14,200 nucleotides of DNA from Promethearchaeota archaeon (GCA_018238625.1 JABCSY010000103.1:1-14200), one strand, 5' to 3'. Shown: positions 1 to 13,692, counted from the first letter of the stretch. The notes: generated from the sequence alone by a model not told the origin. Numbers and translations: made by a program.

Positions 1-595
1 AGTAACGCTCAGCAATAGCGCCTCCTTTGGCAAATTTAGATACGGTTTCGGTAAGTTCGGGTCTAAGCTGCATCTGGTATTTCTCTCCAATTTGAGCGAC
101 AATTAATGCGCCAGAACGCTCTAAATAATCAAAAGCAACAACTCTTACTAATTCTTCAACTTCTTTTTTGGGAATTTCTAATTTAGTCGATAATTCTTCG
201 ACATCAAGGGGTCTACCTGCTGCGTAAAGAGCGCCTTCAATTAAATTTCTCCGTAGTTCTTTCAATTGTATTTTTAAATCTTCTTTCGTCATTTCTTGGG
301 GTATTTGGGGTTCTTCACCGTTAGTTCCTATAATTTCAGTGTCTAGTTCACTTAATCTTTCTTCTGAGGTTTCGGAACTTAATGTGTCTTCTTCAAACTC
401 TTCATTGGATTCTTTTTCGAGTTCTTCTTCGATATTCTCATCGATATCAATAGTACCCTCTAATTCTTCCGGAATCTTTTCTACTTGAGAAATTTCTTTT
501 TCTATTTCACTTATTTTTATTTCTTCCTTTTCTTCTTCTATTTCAGTTTCAATTTCAGGTAGTTTTTCTGGTTCTTTTTCGCTATTTTCGTTCAT
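1..595 (-). CDS. scpB: SMC-Scp complex subunit ScpB (kite), with ~110-aa acidic N-terminal extension; runs off the left edge of the window
   Basis: Absent from the ORF track; translated by hand from ATG at 595 with no stop down to base 1: MNENSEKEPEKLPEIETEIEEEKEE...LRRNLIEGALYAAGRPLDVEELSTKLEIPKKEVEELVRVVAFDYLERSGALIVAQIGEKYQMQLRPELTETVSKF. IEGALYAAGRPL and YQMQLRPE match the ScpB N-terminal winged helix. It starts 15 nt after the scpA stop. Confidence 0.93.
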   Translation of the reverse strand, partial: MNENSEKEPEKLPEIETEIEEEKEEIKISEIEKEISQVEKIPEELEGTIDIDENIEEELEKESNEEFEEDTLSSETSEERLSELDTEIIGTNGEEPQIPQEMTKEDLKIQLKELRRNLIEGALYAAGRPLDVEELSTKLEIPKKEVEELVRVVAFDYLERSGALIVAQIGEKYQMQLRPELTETVSKFAKGGAIAERY

Positions 596-610
596 AATTT
601 ATAGCCAAAA

Positions 611-1618
611 TTATTTTTTTAAGCTAATTGAAAAATTTTTAAAATCTTGTTCTTGTGATAGTATTAGTTTATTGCCCGTGGACAGGAACATAAGCGCCAA
701 AAACATTCTTATAAAAGCAAATTTTTTCCCAAGGTCGCTTTCTTCTTCAGTATTAATAATTTTTGTTATATCAAAAAAACTCGTTTCTTTACCATCAAGT
801 TGTATTTTCGATTTAATGCGGTTAAACCAAGAATTGTGAAGTTCTTCTACCGTTTGTTCCCTTCCACTAATATGCTTCAAAAGTTCTTTTGGTAATTGAG
901 CTTTTGATTTCGTTTGAATTCTTTGTTGTTTTATTTCGTCCCTCCGCATTCTCCGTCTTTTTAATTTTTCTTTCTTTTGCATAGTTTCGATTATGGCAGA
1001 CCTCATCGCGTCAAATAGTTCATCTTTAGTGGAAATCAGCATTTTTGGCTGAATAGGTTGCGGTAATGTCTTTGGAATTGTTCGAGAGTGTTTTTGCCGG
1101 AATTTCTCTAATTCTTCTTTTTTTTGAATTTGTTCTTCTTCTCTTATAATACTCGAAATTTTATAATGATGAAGTACTGCTGATGTTTTAAGAGCAATAC
1201 CTGCAATTTTATAGTTGATTAAATCTTCATGTAGCATGTTATCAAAAAATTTATCTACCAACGATGATAAATCATAGAACGCAACATTTGATTCTTTTGC
1301 GATTTCGCTATCTAATAACGAATTATAGGGGGGTTTTTGCCAAAATTTCAAATCAAATGATTGTTTATGAATTAGTGCAGGATCTTCTTCTTCGCCAGCA
1401 ATTAATTCTTCTTCAATGATTTCTTCCACATCTTCTTGTTCTTGAGTTCTATCGACAAATTCTGGATGAGAAGTTACCTCAGTTAGAAACTTCACAATAT
1501 CGTTCTTTTTGGACTTAGAAGGGATTTTAATCTTATTTTTGCTCGCAAATTCTCTTAACTGCTTAACGCTCCATTCCGTGAAGGCGTACTTCTTTTCTGA
1601 GGTATTTTTTTCAGGAAT
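611..1618 (-). CDS. scpA: Kleisin ScpA with predicted N-terminal helix-extension-helix (Rho_N/SAP-like) domain; start extended from GTG 1495 to ATT 1618 (335 aa)
   Basis: Kleisin N-domain YDLSSLVDKF...NYKIAGIALKTSAVLHHYK and C-terminal wHTH FLALMFLSTGNKLILSQEQDFKNFSI; lies between smc and scpB. The frame stays open upstream of 1495 until a TGA at 1627-1625 and reads IPEKNTSEKKYAFTEWSVKQLREFASKNKIKIPSKSKKNDIVKFL. Gene identity is firm; the start position is inferred. Confidence 0.85.
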   Translation of the reverse strand: MPEKNTSEKKYAFTEWSVKQLREFASKNKIKIPSKSKKNDIVKFLTEVTSHPEFVDRTQEQEDVEEIIEEELIAGEEEDPALIHKQSFDLKFWQKPPYNSLLDSEIAKESNVAFYDLSSLVDKFFDNMLHEDLINYKIAGIALKTSAVLHHYKISSIIREEEQIQKKEELEKFRQKHSRTIPKTLPQPIQPKMLISTKDELFDAMRSAIIETMQKKEKLKRRRMRRDEIKQQRIQTKSKAQLPKELLKHISGREQTVEELHNSWFNRIKSKIQLDGKETSFFDITKIINTEEESDLGKKFAFIRMFLALMFLSTGNKLILSQEQDFKNFSISLKK

Positions 1619-1644: not shown

Positions 1645-4600
1645 TTAATTTTCCTCTACATTTGAGGGTACATCTGGTAGTTCAAGTAATCTTTTGGCTT
1701 CTTCTTCCAAGTCTACGCTAAAGATATCGGTTATTCCACTTTGTTGCATGGAAACGCCATAAATTCGATCGGCATTTACAATATTTTCCTCTCTATGACT
1801 GATTACCATAAATTGTGCTTGGATCGCAAATTCCTTTATAACCACACTGACTCTATGCACATTTGGACCGTCTAAAGCGGCGTCAATCTCATCCATAATG
1901 TAAAATGGAGCAGGATAAAATTCTTGAACGGCAAATATAAAGGATAACGCAACCAAAGTTTTTTCACCCCCACTAAGGATTTCCAAACTAGATATACGTT
2001 TTCCACGAGGTCGAGCTTCAATAGTAACCCCTCCCTCAAACGGTTTATCTGGACGATCAAGAATCATTTTAGCCGATCCCCCGGGTGAAAGTTTCTGGAA
2101 AATGCGTGAAAACTCTCGATTTATCTCGTGATAAGCTTTCATGAAGGTTCTAGTCTTTTCCAATTCAATTTTATCAATTGCGTCAAGTATAGATTTCCTC
2201 TCGCGTTGAATCGTCTGTCTCCTCATATCAATTTCGTCGAATCGCTCTTTTACAGTATCGTATTGTGTAATTGCCTTTAAATTAACGGGTTCTATAGCTT
2301 TTTTCTTGTTATTGGCAGTTGAAATATCTGATTGCAAACCAGCTTCAGATAAGTCGTCAGTAACTGGGGGTAATGAGCCATAATCTTTAGAGCGTTGATA
2401 TAACGTTTCAATTTGATCCGTAGTGATAATTTTTTTAGAATCGTAATTATTCAATTTAGAGCGTTCCATAGAGTGGTCTGATTTAAGTTCATTCAATTGA
2501 TTCTGATAATTTTTTTGCTTTTTCCAAGATATATCCTTTCCTTGAATTTCTTTGTTTATCTCTTCTTGTTTGAGGCTTTTTTTATCGTTTTCTTGGTTTA
2601 GGTCATCTTCAACCTTTTCAATATCTTTTAATATGGATTCAACTTGTTTTTCGGCATCTTTAATATCTTCGTGTAATGATAGGATTTTTTGTTCTCTTTC
2701 CTTATTTTTATTTAATTCGTTTAATTTAGCTTGGGATTTGTGAAGATCTTTGTTTAATTTATTTAATTTTTTCTGAGCTCTCTTCTGGGCGTCTAACTCT
2801 TTGTTTTTATCCTCATGCATTGAATTTATTATTTGTTGTACTTCGTCAACTTTCTTTTGTACTCCGTCTACCTGAGAGTTATGTCCTTCTATATCTTGAT
2901 TGCAAGTTGTAATGTTTTTGCTTGCTTCGCCATTTTCCTTAGATAAATCTTCAATTGAATTTATAATCATCATTACGTTTTCAAGGCCCCTTAACTTATC
3001 CATTGTCGTTTCTAAATTCTTGTTCTGTTCATCAATTTGCGTTCTCAACTTTTCAGTGCTTTCCCAAAAATTATCTTTTTCAGAAAGACGGACTTCTATT
3101 TTTGAAACTATTGCGTCTTGTTCTAGCTTAAGATTCTTTATATTTTCTTCAGTATTGATAATTACTTTTTTCTTCTCTCCTATATTACTATTTAATTCTT
3201 TTATATTACTTTCAACTTCAATAATATCGTCATAGAATGATTGAATACCTTGTAAGTCTTGTAGTTTCTTTTGCAACCCATCTAATTCTATTTGTTTACC
3301 TTCAATTTTTTTTTTTATTATCGAAATATCGTCCCAATAGATGTTTTTTTGTTGCTTTAAGTTTTTAATCTCAACCTCAAAATTTTCTTTTTGCTTCTCT
3401 TCTATCGCCAAGTTCCTCTGCCCAAGCTCATCGTCAGATTTCTTAATTTTTTCATTAATTTCGCTAATTCTTTTATTAACATTTTCTAGCCTTCTATTAC
3501 AAGCAGAAAGATCTACTGAGTCGTGCTTGTTTTGAGTGCTAATCACGCTTAATCTATTGTCAATAGTATTTAAGTCGTTATTTTGAGAATTAAAATTTTC
3601 AGTGATTTCTTCGAGTTGTTTATATAAATCTTGACTTTTCGACATAGTTAACTTTCTTAAAGAAAGATATACATTTTCAAGGATCTCCATTAAATCTTGT
3701 ACAAAGCTATCAAAGGTTGAGGTAGATTCTTGTATCTCCACATCTGCTGATTCTTTTACCTTATCTATTAATTGATCTATGGTAGAATCTATGTTTTCCG
3801 TGAAGAGTCCTAAAGTTTGAAGGATAGATTTAAGCGTTTCAGACATTTCAGAAGTATCAGATCTTTCTTCAGCTTCAGAGCTAACTCCTTCAATAGTTTT
3901 CATAATATCAACTATGTCTAAAACAAATTGTTTAAAATTCATTCCGCTGGTTTCGATAGCTTCTGCGTTTGATTGTTGAATGTTACCCTTTATTGATTCA
4001 ACGGATATATTGATGTTTTGAGTTAACATATTTAAAATCTGAAGGATTCCTGTAATATCTTCTGTGTTTCTTTCGTATTCTTTTTCTGTACTTTCAATCT
4101 TCACCAATAAATTATCTTTCTCAGTTGAAAGTTCCCCCAGGCGCCTTTGAATATTTTCTTTTTTCTTATTCAAATTTAGTGATTCTTTATCAGTTTTAGT
4201 AAGGTTATCACTTAAAGTGGATGATTTTAAATCCAATTCACGCTTTTCACGTTCAAGATTTGTTAATTCTTTTTTAATTAATTTTAATCTAGTATTGATA
4301 TTTTCAATCCTAGTTTTGTTATCATAAATTTCATTTACGATAGAATCTTGTTTCATTAACAATAATTCTAGATTTTGTTCATTTTTTCTATAAGTAGAAT
4401 CTTCTTCTTTTGCTTGTCTTCTAAACTCGTTAATATCTTTAAGCAAAGCATCTCTTTTTTTCAGCAATTCTTTTAAAGCTTCTTCCGTATCTTTTCCTTT
4501 ACTGAGGTCTTCAATTTTATTTTCAGTAGCTAATTTTCTCAATTTTAATTTCTCAATACGGTTACTATTCATTTTAATTTCCGTGTTTAATGAGGATAGC

Positions 4601-6102
4601 ATAGAGTTGAAATCGGCTATTTTCGAATTTAATTGGTTCTTTTCATCTCGTAACCCGTTTATACCTTTTTCTAATTCTTTCTGGTTATCATTTTCCTTAG
4701 AGATTTTTACATTTAGGTTAGCTACTTCTTTTCTTATAATTTCCGCTTCCTTTTTTGTGTTTTTTATCGCTTCTTCTACGCTCTCAGAATCTCCTTTCAA
4801 TTTATTAAGCTCTGCTTCTAACTTTATTTTCTTCTCTTCATTTTTTTTAATGTTTTCTTTTAGAAACTTTAATTTGGCTTTAGTTGAGGAAATACTCTGC
4901 TTAATCGTTGAAATTTCTCGATTAAGTGTCGATTTTGTATTGTTATTATTTTTGATTTTAGCATCAATTTCTGCTTGTTTTTGTTGTTTGCTTTCGATTT
5001 CGCCTTTAGCCTCTTCAATCAAGTTATCTGTTTCCGTTATTACCTTTGATTCTGACTCAATTAAAGAATCGTAAGTCTGACCCTCTTCAAGTTCCATTTG
5101 TAAATTTTCTAAAGTTTTTATCTCTTGAGTTAGTTTTTCTATTGATTTATTAAAATTTTTTAAGGAAGTTTGATTCGAAGATTGTTGGGTTTTTAATAAA
5201 GTAATATTTTCGGTAATAATTTCTCTTTCTTTTTCTTTCTCGGATATGGTTTTTTGTATGTTTTCCATAACTAAAGTTTCTTGTTGTAGCAACTCTTCTT
5301 GTCTTGTTAATTTTTCCTGCAATTCTTCAATAATATAATTAGATTCCTCTATTTTGACCTCCAACTCTTCCTCTTCTTTCCTCAATTTTGAAATCTTTAA
5401 AGCGATCAATTGAGCATTGTAATACGAAACTTTTTCATCTAGCTCCTTCCAAGCTAAAGCATCGTTCTTTTCTTTTTCAACTTTTTTAAGTTGAGAAGAA
5501 ACTTCTTTAAAAATTGCTTCAAATTGTCCTAGATCACGCTCGGCTTTTTCTAACTCTTTCATCGTTGCGTCCTTCATTTCGTCGTACTTCTGGAGGCCAA
5601 TTAGATTTTCAATGAATAATCTGCGACCCACTTCGTTCATATGAGTCAATTCCACGATTTTTCCTTGCAAAACAAACTGATTGCTACCGTCAGGATCTAC
5701 GTTAGCTACAGCTAAAGCGTTAAGAATTTGTTGACGGGTAGCTTTTTTCCCATTCATTTTATAGCCGCCACCGCCACCTCTTTGTATAGTTCGACTAATT
5801 TCAAAAGTATCAGTTCCGCCTGGAAATATTTTTTCGGAATTATCAAAATATAGAGACACTGTGGCTCTATTTGAAGGGTTTTTACCTCGAGAACCGGCAA
5901 AAATTAAATCTTCAAGACTTTTGGCTCTCATAGTTTTCTTGCTTAATCTACCTAAAGCAAAAGTTAATGCGTCAATAATATTCGATTTGCCGGCCCCATT
6001 AGGTCCTACGATGCATGTAAACCCTGAAGAGAGCCTTATAGTTACAGTGCGATCTCCGAAGGATTTAAATCCTGTCATTGAAATTTTTTTAATATAGGTC
6101 AA
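1645..6102 (-). CDS. smc: Chromosome segregation ATPase SMC, atypical (1485 aa, no canonical hinge); TTG start
   Basis: GFKSF, Walker A GPNGAGKSN, Q-loop FVLQG, PVNLKAI, signature LSGGEK, Walker B/D-loop YIMDEIDAALD, H-loop ISH; long coiled coil; directly upstream of scpA and scpB. Confidence 0.96.
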   Translation of the reverse strand: MTYIKKISMTGFKSFGDRTVTIRLSSGFTCIVGPNGAGKSNIIDALTFALGRLSKKTMRAKSLEDLIFAGSRGKNPSNRATVSLYFDNSEKIFPGGTDTFEISRTIQRGGGGGYKMNGKKATRQQILNALAVANVDPDGSNQFVLQGKIVELTHMNEVGRRLFIENLIGLQKYDEMKDATMKELEKAERDLGQFEAIFKEVSSQLKKVEKEKNDALAWKELDEKVSYYNAQLIALKISKLRKEEEELEVKIEESNYIIEELQEKLTRQEELLQQETLVMENIQKTISEKEKEREIITENITLLKTQQSSNQTSLKNFNKSIEKLTQEIKTLENLQMELEEGQTYDSLIESESKVITETDNLIEEAKGEIESKQQKQAEIDAKIKNNNNTKSTLNREISTIKQSISSTKAKLKFLKENIKKNEEKKIKLEAELNKLKGDSESVEEAIKNTKKEAEIIRKEVANLNVKISKENDNQKELEKGINGLRDEKNQLNSKIADFNSMLSSLNTEIKMNSNRIEKLKLRKLATENKIEDLSKGKDTEEALKELLKKRDALLKDINEFRRQAKEEDSTYRKNEQNLELLLMKQDSIVNEIYDNKTRIENINTRLKLIKKELTNLEREKRELDLKSSTLSDNLTKTDKESLNLNKKKENIQRRLGELSTEKDNLLVKIESTEKEYERNTEDITGILQILNMLTQNINISVESIKGNIQQSNAEAIETSGMNFKQFVLDIVDIMKTIEGVSSEAEERSDTSEMSETLKSILQTLGLFTENIDSTIDQLIDKVKESADVEIQESTSTFDSFVQDLMEILENVYLSLRKLTMSKSQDLYKQLEEITENFNSQNNDLNTIDNRLSVISTQNKHDSVDLSACNRRLENVNKRISEINEKIKKSDDELGQRNLAIEEKQKENFEVEIKNLKQQKNIYWDDISIIKKKIEGKQIELDGLQKKLQDLQGIQSFYDDIIEVESNIKELNSNIGEKKKVIINTEENIKNLKLEQDAIVSKIEVRLSEKDNFWESTEKLRTQIDEQNKNLETTMDKLRGLENVMMIINSIEDLSKENGEASKNITTCNQDIEGHNSQVDGVQKKVDEVQQIINSMHEDKNKELDAQKRAQKKLNKLNKDLHKSQAKLNELNKNKEREQKILSLHEDIKDAEKQVESILKDIEKVEDDLNQENDKKSLKQEEINKEIQGKDISWKKQKNYQNQLNELKSDHSMERSKLNNYDSKKIITTDQIETLYQRSKDYGSLPPVTDDLSEAGLQSDISTANNKKKAIEPVNLKAITQYDTVKERFDEIDMRRQTIQRERKSILDAIDKIELEKTRTFMKAYHEINREFSRIFQKLSPGGSAKMILDRPDKPFEGGVTIEARPRGKRISSLEILSGGEKTLVALSFIFAVQEFYPAPFYIMDEIDAALDGPNVHRVSVVIKEFAIQAQFMVISHREENIVNADRIYGVSMQQSGITDIFSVDLEEEAKRLLELPDVPSNVEEN
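2524..3336 (-). repeat. Three exact 90-codon periods in the SMC C-terminal arm (protein-level repeat)
   Basis: KNIYW, KDNFW, KNKEL and KDISW end at W923, W1013, L1103 and W1193 (codons at 3336, 3066, 2796, 2526; 270 nt apart). In-register KL (KKL/DKL/AKL/SKL) and Ile positions are retained. Confidence 0.75.
3670..4059 (-). repeat. Duplicated 56-aa helical module at the SMC midpoint (aa 682-737 and 756-811)
   Basis: Ungapped alignment of DITGILQILNMLTQNINISVESIKGNIQQSNAEAIETSGMNFKQFVLDIVDIMKTI with TLKSILQTLGLFTENIDSTIDQLIDKVKESADVEIQESTSTFDSFVQDLMEILENV gives 15/56 identities by hand count. Confidence 0.75.
4198..5073 (-). repeat. 97-98-codon periods in the SMC N-terminal arm (protein-level repeat)
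   Basis: Gly-containing breaks EGQTYDSLI, KGDSESVEEAI and KGKDTEEAL at aa 344, 442 and 539. KSTLNREISTIKQSISSTKAKLKFLKENIKK aligns in register with KNQLNSKIADFNSMLSSLNTEIKMNSNRIEK. The left boundary is approximate. Confidence 0.7.
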
Positions 6103-6220: not shown

Positions 6221-7423
6221 TTAAAAAAGAAAATTGTTTTTATTAAAAATTGCGTCTAAAATGCTTTTTAATTGTCGCGGATTTAGCACCATGAAATAAA
6301 AATTGTAGTTTAAGATGTTGTCGGAAAAATATCTATAATCGTTTAGGTTATTTTTTTTAGAGGCGTTTAAAATTCCAATGTTTCTGAGTGTCGTAATTAA
6401 ATTTTTAAATTCTTCCATATCTTTTTCGTAATCAAATGATTCACACGAAACAAAATAAAGCTCTTTTAATTCCTTTATAGTTATGTAAAGATTTGAGTTT
6501 TTTAAGAAATGGTTCGATAGATTGTCTAAAAAGATTATTGTGAGTAATTCTGCTTCAGAAATATAAGAAAGCATGCTAAATTCATCTGTAGTTTGAAGCG
6601 AATCGAACTGGTTTCGAAGGATTTCAGAGATTTCTAGATTGTTCAAACTAACTTGTTGATTTAATACGGGATAAATTTCCCTTAATATTTCGATCCCTTT
6701 TCCGGGAACTGGCACATAATGCTCAAAAATTAAATCAGTTATAAATTCTACTAATTCCTTGTCAACTTCACGCAAAAAAGTTAAGGAAACTCTTTGTTTT
6801 AGAATGTCGAAAAGTTCTTTATATGAAAAATAATTTAATTTTTTCTTTAAGTCAAATTCACTTATAAGATCTAATGTTGAGGGTTTTAAAGCTTGATTTA
6901 CGGTAGCTAGAAAGCTAACGCTCGTATCTTTACCGTATTGCAAGAACTTTTTGAAGAATTCTGGTTCCAGATGCTCGATATTGTTAAAAATGAATATAAG
7001 ATTGTGATCAACTTTTCTACACGTTAGTTTAAATAGGTTCCATAGATTCGATAAATTCGAATTTATAATACTTTTAAAATTAATATTAATCTTATTTTGA
7101 TTTTGACCAATTTTAGTTAGTAACGAAATAATAATTTCATTGAGATTTTTTTCCCTACAATCAACTTGGATGTTTAAAAATTCAGTGTTCAAGTTAGATA
7201 AATCTCTAATAACTTTATTTATAATAACTTGCTTTCCAATTCCTTGAATTCCTTGATATAATATAGATAAACTAAAATCATCTGAAAATGAATCTTTTAG
7301 AATTGAAAATAGAGATTTTTCTTCTCTATTGCGATACAATATTTGGGGGGGGACATAATGTGCGTCAAATAAAGCTCGAGGCCCTACATAACTACTTTTA
7401 TTAACATTTGGTGTTGATATCAT
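6221..7423 (-). CDS. Orc1/Cdc6-family AAA+ protein with degenerate ATPase motifs
   Basis: N-terminal FDAHYVPPQILYRNREE, Walker A-like GIQGIGKQ, Walker B-like FIFNNIEHL, lid FSYKELFDILKQRV, C-terminal wHTH ELKELYFVSCE...LITTLRNIGIL. Confidence 0.85.
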   Translation of the reverse strand: MISTPNVNKSSYVGPRALFDAHYVPPQILYRNREEKSLFSILKDSFSDDFSLSILYQGIQGIGKQVIINKVIRDLSNLNTEFLNIQVDCREKNLNEIIISLLTKIGQNQNKININFKSIINSNLSNLWNLFKLTCRKVDHNLIFIFNNIEHLEPEFFKKFLQYGKDTSVSFLATVNQALKPSTLDLISEFDLKKKLNYFSYKELFDILKQRVSLTFLREVDKELVEFITDLIFEHYVPVPGKGIEILREIYPVLNQQVSLNNLEISEILRNQFDSLQTTDEFSMLSYISEAELLTIIFLDNLSNHFLKNSNLYITIKELKELYFVSCESFDYEKDMEEFKNLITTLRNIGILNASKKNNLNDYRYFSDNILNYNFYFMVLNPRQLKSILDAIFNKNNFLF

Positions 7424-12501: not shown

Positions 12502-13692
12502 ATGTTTGAAACAGAATTTTTACTTTTGCCGCTTCGAATTGACAAACACAATAAGGGATATGTAGATTTTTATATAGGTCCAAAAAAAATTCGTAAAATC
12601 GTTGACAATGAGGTTTTAACTTCACCAAACAAACTTCTAACCGATTGCAAAGCTTTACAAAAAGGTTTGTTTAAACAAGGTTACGATATAAAACGCGAGC
12701 GGTATATAGAGAAAATGTTAACGGCGATGAGGACTTCGATTGAAATCCTAATCGGAATCGATATTCCTTTTAAGGAGCAATTTTTAAGGCTATATGATGT
12801 AGTCTTACACCCAGTTAACGAATCTGAATTAGATAACTTAAAAGAAGAGATTAACACAGCGTATGGTGGTCTTGGAAGCTTAGAAAGACGAATAAACGAT
12901 TTAAAAGTTCAACGAACTGTTCCTGAGGGTAAAGTATCTGAATTATATAAAAAAGCTCTCAACATCACGAGAGAGCGAACTAAAGAGTTATTTGTTGATC
13001 TTTTACCTCAAAAAGAACGAATTGTTTTGGAATTAGTCAAAAATAATGATAAAGTAAAATGGAGTTATTACAATTGGTATTTGGGTAATTTTCGTTCCCG
13101 AATAGTGGTTAACCCAAATTATAATATGTATTGGACAGCGTTTTTGTCTGGTGCCGCACATGAGGGTTATCCAGGACACCACACAGAATTTGCTATCAAA
13201 GAAAAAGTGTTATACCGCGAATTAAATCAATATGAACACTCATTATTACTGATACATAGCCCTAAATTAATACTCTCAGAAGGGATCGCAGATTTAGCAA
13301 TAAATATGCTCTTTTCAAATCGGGAAGCAGTAGAAATTAGTTTACGAGAATTGTGCCCAGATTCATCAAACGAAGATTCTCTTGAAATAATGATGGCACA
13401 AAACAAAGTAAAAGGGAAAATAACACTTTTTTGGTATAATTTTGCATATCATGCTCTTATTGATAAATATAACGATGATGAATTAATGCAATATGGAACA
13501 AATTTTGAAGTTTTTAATAAAGAAACCATAAAAAATCAACTTAAAAGAATCTCTAACCCAGTTTATTCAAAAAACGCTTTTTTATATAACCTTGGAACCA
13601 ATCTCATAAAGCACAAATACGGAGACCCTCCTTCAGTTAAAGATTTTCGATATCTTCTCATTAATCCAATTTTACCTTCAGATTTAATATGA
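12502..13692 (+). CDS. DUF885-like putative zinc metallopeptidase
   Basis: AHEGYPGHHTE motif followed by downstream SEGIA (third ligand Glu) and C-terminal FLYNLG. Confidence 0.75.
   Translation: MFETEFLLLPLRIDKHNKGYVDFYIGPKKIRKIVDNEVLTSPNKLLTDCKALQKGLFKQGYDIKRERYIEKMLTAMRTSIEILIGIDIPFKEQFLRLYDVVLHPVNESELDNLKEEINTAYGGLGSLERRINDLKVQRTVPEGKVSELYKKALNITRERTKELFVDLLPQKERIVLELVKNNDKVKWSYYNWYLGNFRSRIVVNPNYNMYWTAFLSGAAHEGYPGHHTEFAIKEKVLYRELNQYEHSLLLIHSPKLILSEGIADLAINMLFSNREAVEISLRELCPDSSNEDSLEIMMAQNKVKGKITLFWYNFAYHALIDKYNDDELMQYGTNFEVFNKETIKNQLKRISNPVYSKNAFLYNLGTNLIKHKYGDPPSVKDFRYLLINPILPSDLI

Follow-up and report, generated by a model that had tools for sequence, protein, structure and literature searches.

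A hinge-less, long-armed SMC paralogue with a duplicated helical apex from a single order of Loki-type Asgard archaea

The window analysed here is the entire contig C86 (14.2 kb) from an Asgard genome bin of 4.29 Mb with a completeness of 97.9% and a contamination of 7.6%; the GC content is ~31%. Close homologues of the proteins encoded at the locus carry the source names Lokiarchaeota or Promethearchaeota. An SMC gene lies on the minus strand, in which positions 3670..4059 (-) encode aa 682-811 of the 1485-aa product. A 294-aa ORF and then an ScpB gene follow downstream in the same orientation. The gene order SMC, kleisin, ScpB was found in all three loci examined (the window and the genomes G135 and G149), and these genes appear to form a genuine SMC-kleisin-kite locus. 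The features and their coordinates are listed in Table 1.

Table 1. Features of the SMC locus in the 14.2-kb window, with the evidence for each.
Feature	Coordinates	Strand	Evidence
Hinge-less SMC gene, 1485 aa, TTG start	1645..6102	-	ORF; SMC_N 132.5 bits; TIGR02168/TIGR02169 scores
N-terminal ATPase head half, ~aa 1-170	5593..6102	-	Pfam, motifs, hhalign E 4e-70
N-terminal arm strand, aa 171-673	4084..5592	-	No Pro; two hydrophobic heptad positions in most windows; aa 601-673 helix (model)
Apex unit 1, aa 674-737, predicted up-strand of tip hairpin	3892..4083	-	hhalign, AlphaFold2 helix, heptads
Ser/Glu-rich linker, variable, aa 738-747	3862..3891	-	AlphaFold2 loop, entropy, composition
Apex unit 2, aa 748-811, predicted down-strand of tip hairpin	3670..3861	-	hhalign, AlphaFold2, heptads
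C-terminal arm strand, aa 812-1270, 90-aa periodicity	2293..3669	-	Autocorrelation; aa 812-889 helix (AlphaFold2)
C-terminal ATPase head half, ~aa 1271-1485	1648..2292	-	Pfam, motifs, hhalign E 1.4e-73
Putative kleisin (ScpA-like), 294 aa	611..1495	-	ESM Atlas, JGI names, PDB profile matches
ScpB-like kite, acidic N-terminal extension, cut by contig end	2..595	-	PF04079 49.2 bits

The whole protein matched five Pfam families at E ≤ 0.1, namely SMC_N and generic AAA families. It scored 580.6 bits with TIGR02168, above the cut-off of 567.35, and 586.9 bits with TIGR02169, below the cut-off of 729.4. All five ATPase motifs are present: Walker A (GPNGAGKS, aa 33) and the Q-loop (VLQG, aa 144) in the N-terminal head, and the signature (LSGGE, aa 1376), Walker B/D-loop (FYIMDEIDAALD, aa 1400), and H-loop (ISHR, aa 1434) in the C-terminal head. 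Both head halves were aligned with canonical Asgard SMC heads by hhalign at 100% (E-values in Table 1), and the heads of the hinge-less clade are better conserved than those of the canonical paralogue.

Three lines of evidence point to the 294-aa ORF as a kleisin. In the ESM Atlas, the SMC_ScpA set accounted for 26 of the 30 matches, with scores of 0.90-0.92; many homologues bear the JGI name 'Rec8/ScpA/Scc1 (kleisin family)'; and the family profile A2, searched against 177,635 PDB sequences, gave as its best five matches ScpA or Scc1 domains (E 0.05-0.14), located at the correct N- and C-terminal positions. The ORF itself is without a Pfam match, and PF02616 (ScpA) matched neither this ORF nor any other part of the genome. 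The ScpB copy in the window, which is cut by the contig end, was matched by PF04079 over profile positions 2-74 of 160, and the orthologues neighbouring the SMC genes in G135 and G149 scored 116-118 bits with the same family. The first-pass annotation had called the product an otherwise genuine Smc-ScpAB ATPase. This description stands as regards the SMC-type heads and the adjoining putative kleisin and ScpB genes, but the protein is a distinct long-armed paralogue and not merely an Smc minus its hinge.

The absence of an SMC hinge and of a zinc hook, which the same annotation had claimed and for which it had anticipated no profile match, was borne out. Neither PF06470 (SMC_hinge) nor PF04423 (Rad50 hook) matched the whole 1485-aa protein at E ≤ 0.1; when aa 550-950 were searched alone at E ≤ 10, 14 sub-threshold helical families were returned, and these two were not among them. 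When the profile of aa 600-890 of the hinge-less clade was compared by hhalign with a profile of the hinge regions from 16 canonical Asgard SMCs, the probability was 0.1%. The hinge search was effective on this genome, in which one hinge was found, on contig C101. No CxxC motif occurs in the protein, its only cysteines being at positions 30, 868, and 1067, and proline is absent between aa 138 and 1244, a stretch of ~1100 residues. These searches show the architecture of the Lokiarchaeial SMC, as far as it can be read from its sequence, to be hinge-less and hook-less.

The arms form a long antiparallel coiled coil, as judged from the predicted hairpin of aa 601-889, the proline-free stretch, and heptads throughout. 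Each strand measures ~577 residues from head to turn, versus ~364 in the canonical protein of G135 (~1.6x); at 0.1485 nm per residue, this corresponds to an estimated arm length of ~85-86 nm versus 54 nm. Autocorrelation of the C-terminal arm revealed a lag of 90 (z 4.8) and one of 180 (z 3.0); in the N-terminal arm, lag 195 ranked first, and the eight strongest lags did not include 97. A relative of 1296 aa, P0141, is without 97 aa of the N-terminal arm and 75 aa of the C-terminal arm, matched on both strands. The account of the B. subtilis Smc(Zh) chimera by Burmann et al. (2017, PMC5344682) describes arm length changes in ~91-99-aa steps, and the deletions of P0141 fit such natural and engineered steps.

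A gapless local alignment of aa 680-737 with aa 754-811 contained 16 identities in 58 positions with a period of 74. Its score of 87 was reached by none of 1000 shuffles (30.5 +/- 5.5); by itself, this single-sequence score is weak because the best of 78 unrelated arm-segment pairs reached 83. Family profiles of the units aa 674-737 and 748-811 were aligned in register over 64 columns (hhalign, 98.4%, E 6.9e-15), whereas all 24 control comparisons of the units with 12 arm segments gave at most 3.3%. Moreover, an HMM of either unit found the other among 6584 frames (i-E 9e-8 and 4e-9). The profile evidence shows the two apex units to be truly homologous, and the duplicated module with a 74-aa period, proposed on first inspection, is upheld, as is the location of the chain midpoint (743) within the linker region aa 738-755.

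The monomeric AlphaFold2 model of aa 600-890, built on a 46-row alignment (45 homologues), consisted of two uninterrupted helices, 601-743 and 751-889, with a mean pLDDT of 85.6 (stalk ~95, apex 77-83, loop 54). A loop at aa 744-750 (fragment residues 145-151), which takes in the first three residues of unit 2, joins the two helices of the model; the apex units are thus predicted to pair as antiparallel strands of a single hairpin that turns at the Ser/Glu linker. Homology links the final 64 residues of the up-strand with the first 64 of the down-strand, so that the tip would be a pseudo-two-fold antiparallel helical hairpin. The earlier description of two copies flanking a Ser/Glu-rich linker is correct in that the linker lies between the copies; they enclose no separate domain, and in the model the linker is the hairpin turn. 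The all-helical, duplicated character of the apex agrees with the model, with the profile homology of the units, and with their conservation. Foldseek and VIA-align returned only long helical hairpins for the apex model, including chemoreceptor signalling domains, dynein stalks, and the arms of Smc, Smc5/6, MukB, and cohesin, with VIA Z-scores of at most 13.9, within the range that the tool calls common for long helices. Naming a fold family for the apex from these matches, which are generic to long hairpins, was dropped. A phmmer search of aa 600-900 against PDB sequences yielded three irrelevant matches only (E ≥ 0.07).

Conservation and composition were calculated for 33 sequences sharing under 80% identity. 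The apex ranks with the best conserved regions of the protein, with an entropy of 1.1-1.3 bits in its units versus 1.4-1.7 bits in the arms; within the apex, the highest value (1.93 bits) was obtained for the linker aa 738-752, in which D+E make up 40%. The fraction of large hydrophobic residues is 0.37-0.38 in the tip versus 0.26-0.27 in the arms, and that of K+R 0.05-0.08 versus 0.17-0.20; the net charge of aa 674-811 is -19. In windows of 28 residues, three hydrophobic heptad positions were found in 11 of the 12 apex windows, versus a mean of 1.9 in the arms (n=125, exactly two in 85). A two-helix hairpin needs two hydrophobic heptad positions, and the presence of a third hints at an additional helical contact. 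A conserved, acidic tip with such a position would fit an interface of a helical bundle.

That the architecture is an artefact, either of a chimeric assembly or of a decaying gene that has lost its hinge, has a negligible probability. The window is a short contig of 14.2 kb with both ends in repeated DNA, and the contamination of the genome bin might be cited in favour of such an origin; but a contig from another study spans positions 2800-5000 with three differences, contigs from two further DNA studies bridge 3670-4059 with zero indels, and intact frames of ~1470-1510 aa occur in 133 genomes, three of them single-contig. The good conservation of the apex also argues against it. The misassembly that the first-pass annotation had named as a possible source of error is thereby excluded. 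As a separate observation, RNA-library contigs of a ~95%-identical relative cover positions 3153-4778, a coverage that is itself no proof of transcription.

A search with the apex only retrieved 34 clusters among 1.84 billion representatives, of which the full-length ones (1296-1487 aa) contain SMC_N and have no hinge. The apex was present in 133 of 400 genomes of the phylum, and three closed single-contig genomes were among the carriers. Within one Asgard order, it was found in 131 of 154 genomes (this genome is included in both counts), with family counts of f1 113/134, f2 1/1, f3 14/14, and f4 2/4. Outside the order it was detected in two genomes only, which are probably misbinned because G039 has 70-75%-identical pieces across three contigs, and the sequence of G063, on an 8.6-kb contig, is identical to P0130. 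Among the genomes searched, the hinge-less clade is confined to a single Loki-type Asgard order.

The hinge family was present in 305 of the same 400 genomes. In the genus of the window, a single hinge match, and a weak one (E 6e-5 to 5e-11), occurs in 37 of 41 genomes. The one match of this genome is the C101 protein, whose TIGR02169 score is only 184.6 bits and whose gene precedes two small ORFs; in the head tree, it groups with similar proteins of G135, G138, G149, and G115, apart from canonical SMCs, and is probably the SMC5/6-related archaeal SMC of PMC8665677. In addition, a ~1200-aa frame matches the hinge family strongly (E 1e-25 to 1e-35) in 10 of the 14 f3 genomes, in three of the four f4 genomes, and in 13 f1 genomes, the latter belonging to the genera g2, g3, g7, g10, and part of g11. 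In G135, the canonical Smc adjoins its own ScpB, and the hinge-less one is accompanied by a kleisin of its own and by a longer ScpB. A tblastn search of this genome with canonical Smc and ScpB sequences from G135 and G149 hit only C86 and C101. By these searches, the hinge-less SMC is the only condensin-type Smc of this genome, which has no canonical SMC and only a divergent hinge-bearing paralogue.

The head-half tree (35 rows, 425 columns, IQ-TREE LG+C20) comprised Asgard sequences only, with no non-Asgard outgroup. The hinge-less proteins formed a clade with a support of 100/100 and a stem of 0.95. It is nested in the canonical Asgard clade (100/99), where it branches from a polytomy, and is separate from the C101-type clade. 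Taken with the gene content of the related families, the tree indicates that the hinge-less SMC is a distinct long-armed paralogue clade that coexists there with canonical Smc.

We consider the region to be the arm tip of a hinge-less, long-armed SMC paralogue that has its own SMC-kleisin-ScpB complex and belongs to one Loki-type Asgard order, with a probability of roughly 60%. Each chain would run ~577 residues up from the head, pass through the short acidic turn at aa 744-750, and return. The extra hydrophobic seam seen in the sequence may serve as an arm-to-arm joining surface, by which two tips would associate as a four-helix bundle and take over the dimerising job of the hinge. All four helices of such a bundle would occupy near-equivalent positions because the strands of the hairpin are homologous, an arrangement that usually results when a self-associating helix is duplicated. 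Any DNA-binding function that a hinge has would probably be absent from an acidic tip; by analogy with Smc-ScpAB, ATP-driven head engagement and kleisin bridging may be retained. Joining through the tips gains plausibility from B. subtilis Smc, in which a zinc hook can stand in functionally for the hinge, as reported for a chimera with the hinge swapped for the hook of Rad50 (PMC5344682; also PMC6969161).

In its fullest form, the proposal is a hinge-free SMC-kleisin-kite motor with ~85-nm arms joined by a pseudo-D2 four-helix bundle, built of four copies of an ancestral 64-residue helix, two per chain, that replaced canonical Smc as the sole condensin-type complex in most genera of the order. 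We advance this tentatively, at somewhat less than an even chance. Several points weigh against the main reading of the tips as joining elements: the AlphaFold2 model is less confident in the apex and loop than in the stalk, the third hydrophobic position could just as well bind a partner protein or make a fold-back contact, the repeat score from the single sequence barely exceeds that of the best unrelated arm pair, and the structural matches are those of any long helices.

The tip may instead be a docking site whose conserved hydrophobic seam binds another protein, for example a loader, anchor, or DNA-binding adaptor, the arms being unjoined at the apex and dimerisation being due to the heads and kleisin only; this we regard as unlikely, though by no means far-fetched. 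The module of ~170 aa occurs twice in tandem in non-SMC proteins (~1000-1180 aa) of the sister family f3, which combine a beta-rich central part with a Lys-rich tail, and may be a portable interaction domain because of this second context. The acidity of the tip would suit such a role, and a hinge-less SMC clade of marine Actinobacteria whose joining mode is unknown has been described (PMC12153180). However, no second module protein is encoded in this genome, in which only the SMC scored below E 0.1 among 6584 frames; no conserved extra gene occurs in the three operons examined; and the pseudo-symmetry of the strands fits self-association at least as well. The model of aa 1-520 of one tandem-module protein (G135 L018) was all-helical, with eight helices and a mean pLDDT of 86.4 on a 6-row alignment; it is uninformative on module packing, and Foldseek found nothing meaningful for it (TM ≤ 0.23).

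A third reading, in which the tip folds back onto its own complex (the arm, the joint, the heads, or the acidic/basic tails of ScpB or kleisin), is improbable. The hinge folds back in the elbow-folded cohesin and MukBEF, whose elbows are among the structural matches of the apex, though those matches are generic. The arms are ~1.6x the canonical length, and their modular 90-aa periodicity could permit folding, but no elbow-like break was found: the arms are without proline or conserved glycine, and the helices are continuous over the 291 residues modelled.

The hinge is treated as a defining and universal part of SMC-kleisin complexes, in which it dimerises the arms, binds DNA, and is the proposed DNA gate. 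The hinge-less clade would be a natural experiment without it, having its own kleisin and kite and arms lengthened in ~90-aa modules, and canonical Smc is gone from many genera that carry it. If the proposed joining of the arms is true, the roles proposed for the hinge in DNA binding, in DNA entry, and in the opening of the arms can be dispensed with or now lie elsewhere, and this in a lineage near the origin of eukaryotes. The hinge-less SMC is accessible to biochemistry, imaging, and Hi-C. The finding also bears on the number of SMC complexes that the eukaryotes' archaeal ancestor had. [quoted passage not shown] A literature search turned up no account of an Asgard SMC without a hinge, and the supplements of the same preprint may list the present paralogue.

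Among known systems, the Lokiarchaeial protein resembles Smc-ScpAB (TIGR02168/TIGR02169; PF02463 with PF06470; Asgard Smc of ~1200 aa) in its heads, motifs, antiparallel arm, and adjacent putative kleisin and ScpB genes. It differs from canonical Smc in having no hinge, in its longer arms, in its duplicated helical hairpin apex, and in forming a separate paralogue clade. No MukB-family model (MukB/MksB/JetC) was among the Pfam or NCBIfam matches listed.

With Rad50/SbcC and the archaeal ASRP/ClsN/Sph proteins, it shares SMC-superfamily heads and a hairpin with no globular hinge. Those proteins dimerise via a small element at the tip, which is only proposed for the Lokiarchaeial SMC; the latter has neither CxxC nor a hook, and its gene adjoins kleisin and kite genes, not Mre11. 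An identity as Rad50 or ASRP was rejected, as the NCBIfam scores were far below the cut-offs and neither CxxC nor PF04423 was found. RecN, a protein of ~550 aa with no kleisin or kite, dimerises through its coiled-coil tips without a hinge or hook, and for both the presumed joining element is a tip that is all-helical. The RecN models scored 24-25 bits against cut-offs of 408-418, and this identity was also rejected, given the length of 1485 aa and the adjoining kleisin and ScpB genes. Most ASRPs carry a zinc hook, according to PMC9389158.

The hinge-less SMCs of marine Actinobacteria, described from predicted structures as having neither hinge nor CxxC (Sussfeld et al. 2025, PMC12153180), are alike in their SMC-like heads and arms, a likeness that is one of description only. 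They are bacterial, and the description available to us states neither a kleisin/kite context nor a duplicated tip. The Smc(Zh) chimera is likewise an Smc with a non-hinge apex; it is man-made and dimerises through a zinc hook, whereas the Lokiarchaeial apex is natural and, as predicted, purely helical.

Apex modules, the duplicated helical hairpins at the SMC arm tip, were also found outside SMC proteins, and the loci concerned are listed in the table together with the other features discussed here. The protein encoded in the related genome G135, together with P0143, P0145, P0146, and P0149, makes up a set of non-SMC proteins with apex modules in the sister family f3 of the same Asgard order. 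These proteins are about 1000-1180 aa long and contain the whole module twice in tandem (aa ~54-219 and ~304-470); after the second copy come a region rich in beta structure and a Lys-rich tail that includes KKTTTKK-type repeats. They are without a Walker A motif, and no Pfam family was matched. The occurrence of the module in these proteins shows that it is a portable domain. Among 400 phylum genomes, the sole apex matches beyond the order were in G039 (C256, C234, and C278) and G063 (C70); the contigs are short, the matches are nearly the same as within-order sequences (G063, identical to P0130; G039 pieces, 70-75%), and misbinning is a more probable origin than gene transfer.

Coordinates of the features outside the SMC, kleisin, and ScpB genes of the window
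Feature	Location	Strand	Remark
Non-SMC protein with apex modules	L018:6997-10122	-	G135
400-aa ORF	window 6221-7423	-	upstream of SMC gene
396-aa ORF	window 12502-13692, extending to 14200	+	weak DUF885 match
Copies related to 396-aa ORF	C188, C164, C24 (2), C121 (2), C46 (2), C152
Second SMC operon (L014)	G000:C101:7407-11960		divergent SMC and two small ORFs

In the C-arm of the window SMC (aa 812-1270, window 2293-3669), the sequence is periodic at 90 residues (z 4.8, with z 3.0 at lag 180). P0141, a relative of 1296 aa, is missing 97 aa of the N-arm and 75 aa of the C-arm, which suggests that arm length varies by matched modules. A stretch of the SMC gene (window 3153-4778) was covered at high word depth by metatranscriptomic-library contigs (run X17) from a relative roughly 90-95% identical, which hints at expression, with the limit that such libraries can contain DNA. 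The 400-aa ORF yielded solely sub-threshold matches to Cdc6 C-terminal winged helix and AAA/STAND NTPase models and is not kept beside the SMC gene in the related genomes G135 and G149.

The 396-aa ORF belongs to a multi-copy family, with at least nine related copies in the genome bin (72-90% DNA identity), which probably explains the contig break at the right end. At the left end, window 1-759 is 91.7% identical in DNA to C164:22610-23617, the common segment comprising ScpB and the final 50 kleisin codons. The C164 copy encodes a complete ScpB (280 aa) and is neighboured by ABC-permease genes, not SMC. It represents either a second strain within the bin, consistent with the bin contamination of 7.6%, or a genuine partial duplication.

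The divergent SMC on contig C101 of the same bin comprises 1125 aa counted from the first start codon (open frame, 1166 aa), with a weak but significant hinge match (33.5 bits). Two small overlapping ORFs (216 and 186 aa) are located 3' of it; they had no family matches and are candidates for the kleisin and the kite gene of a complex related to SMC5/6.
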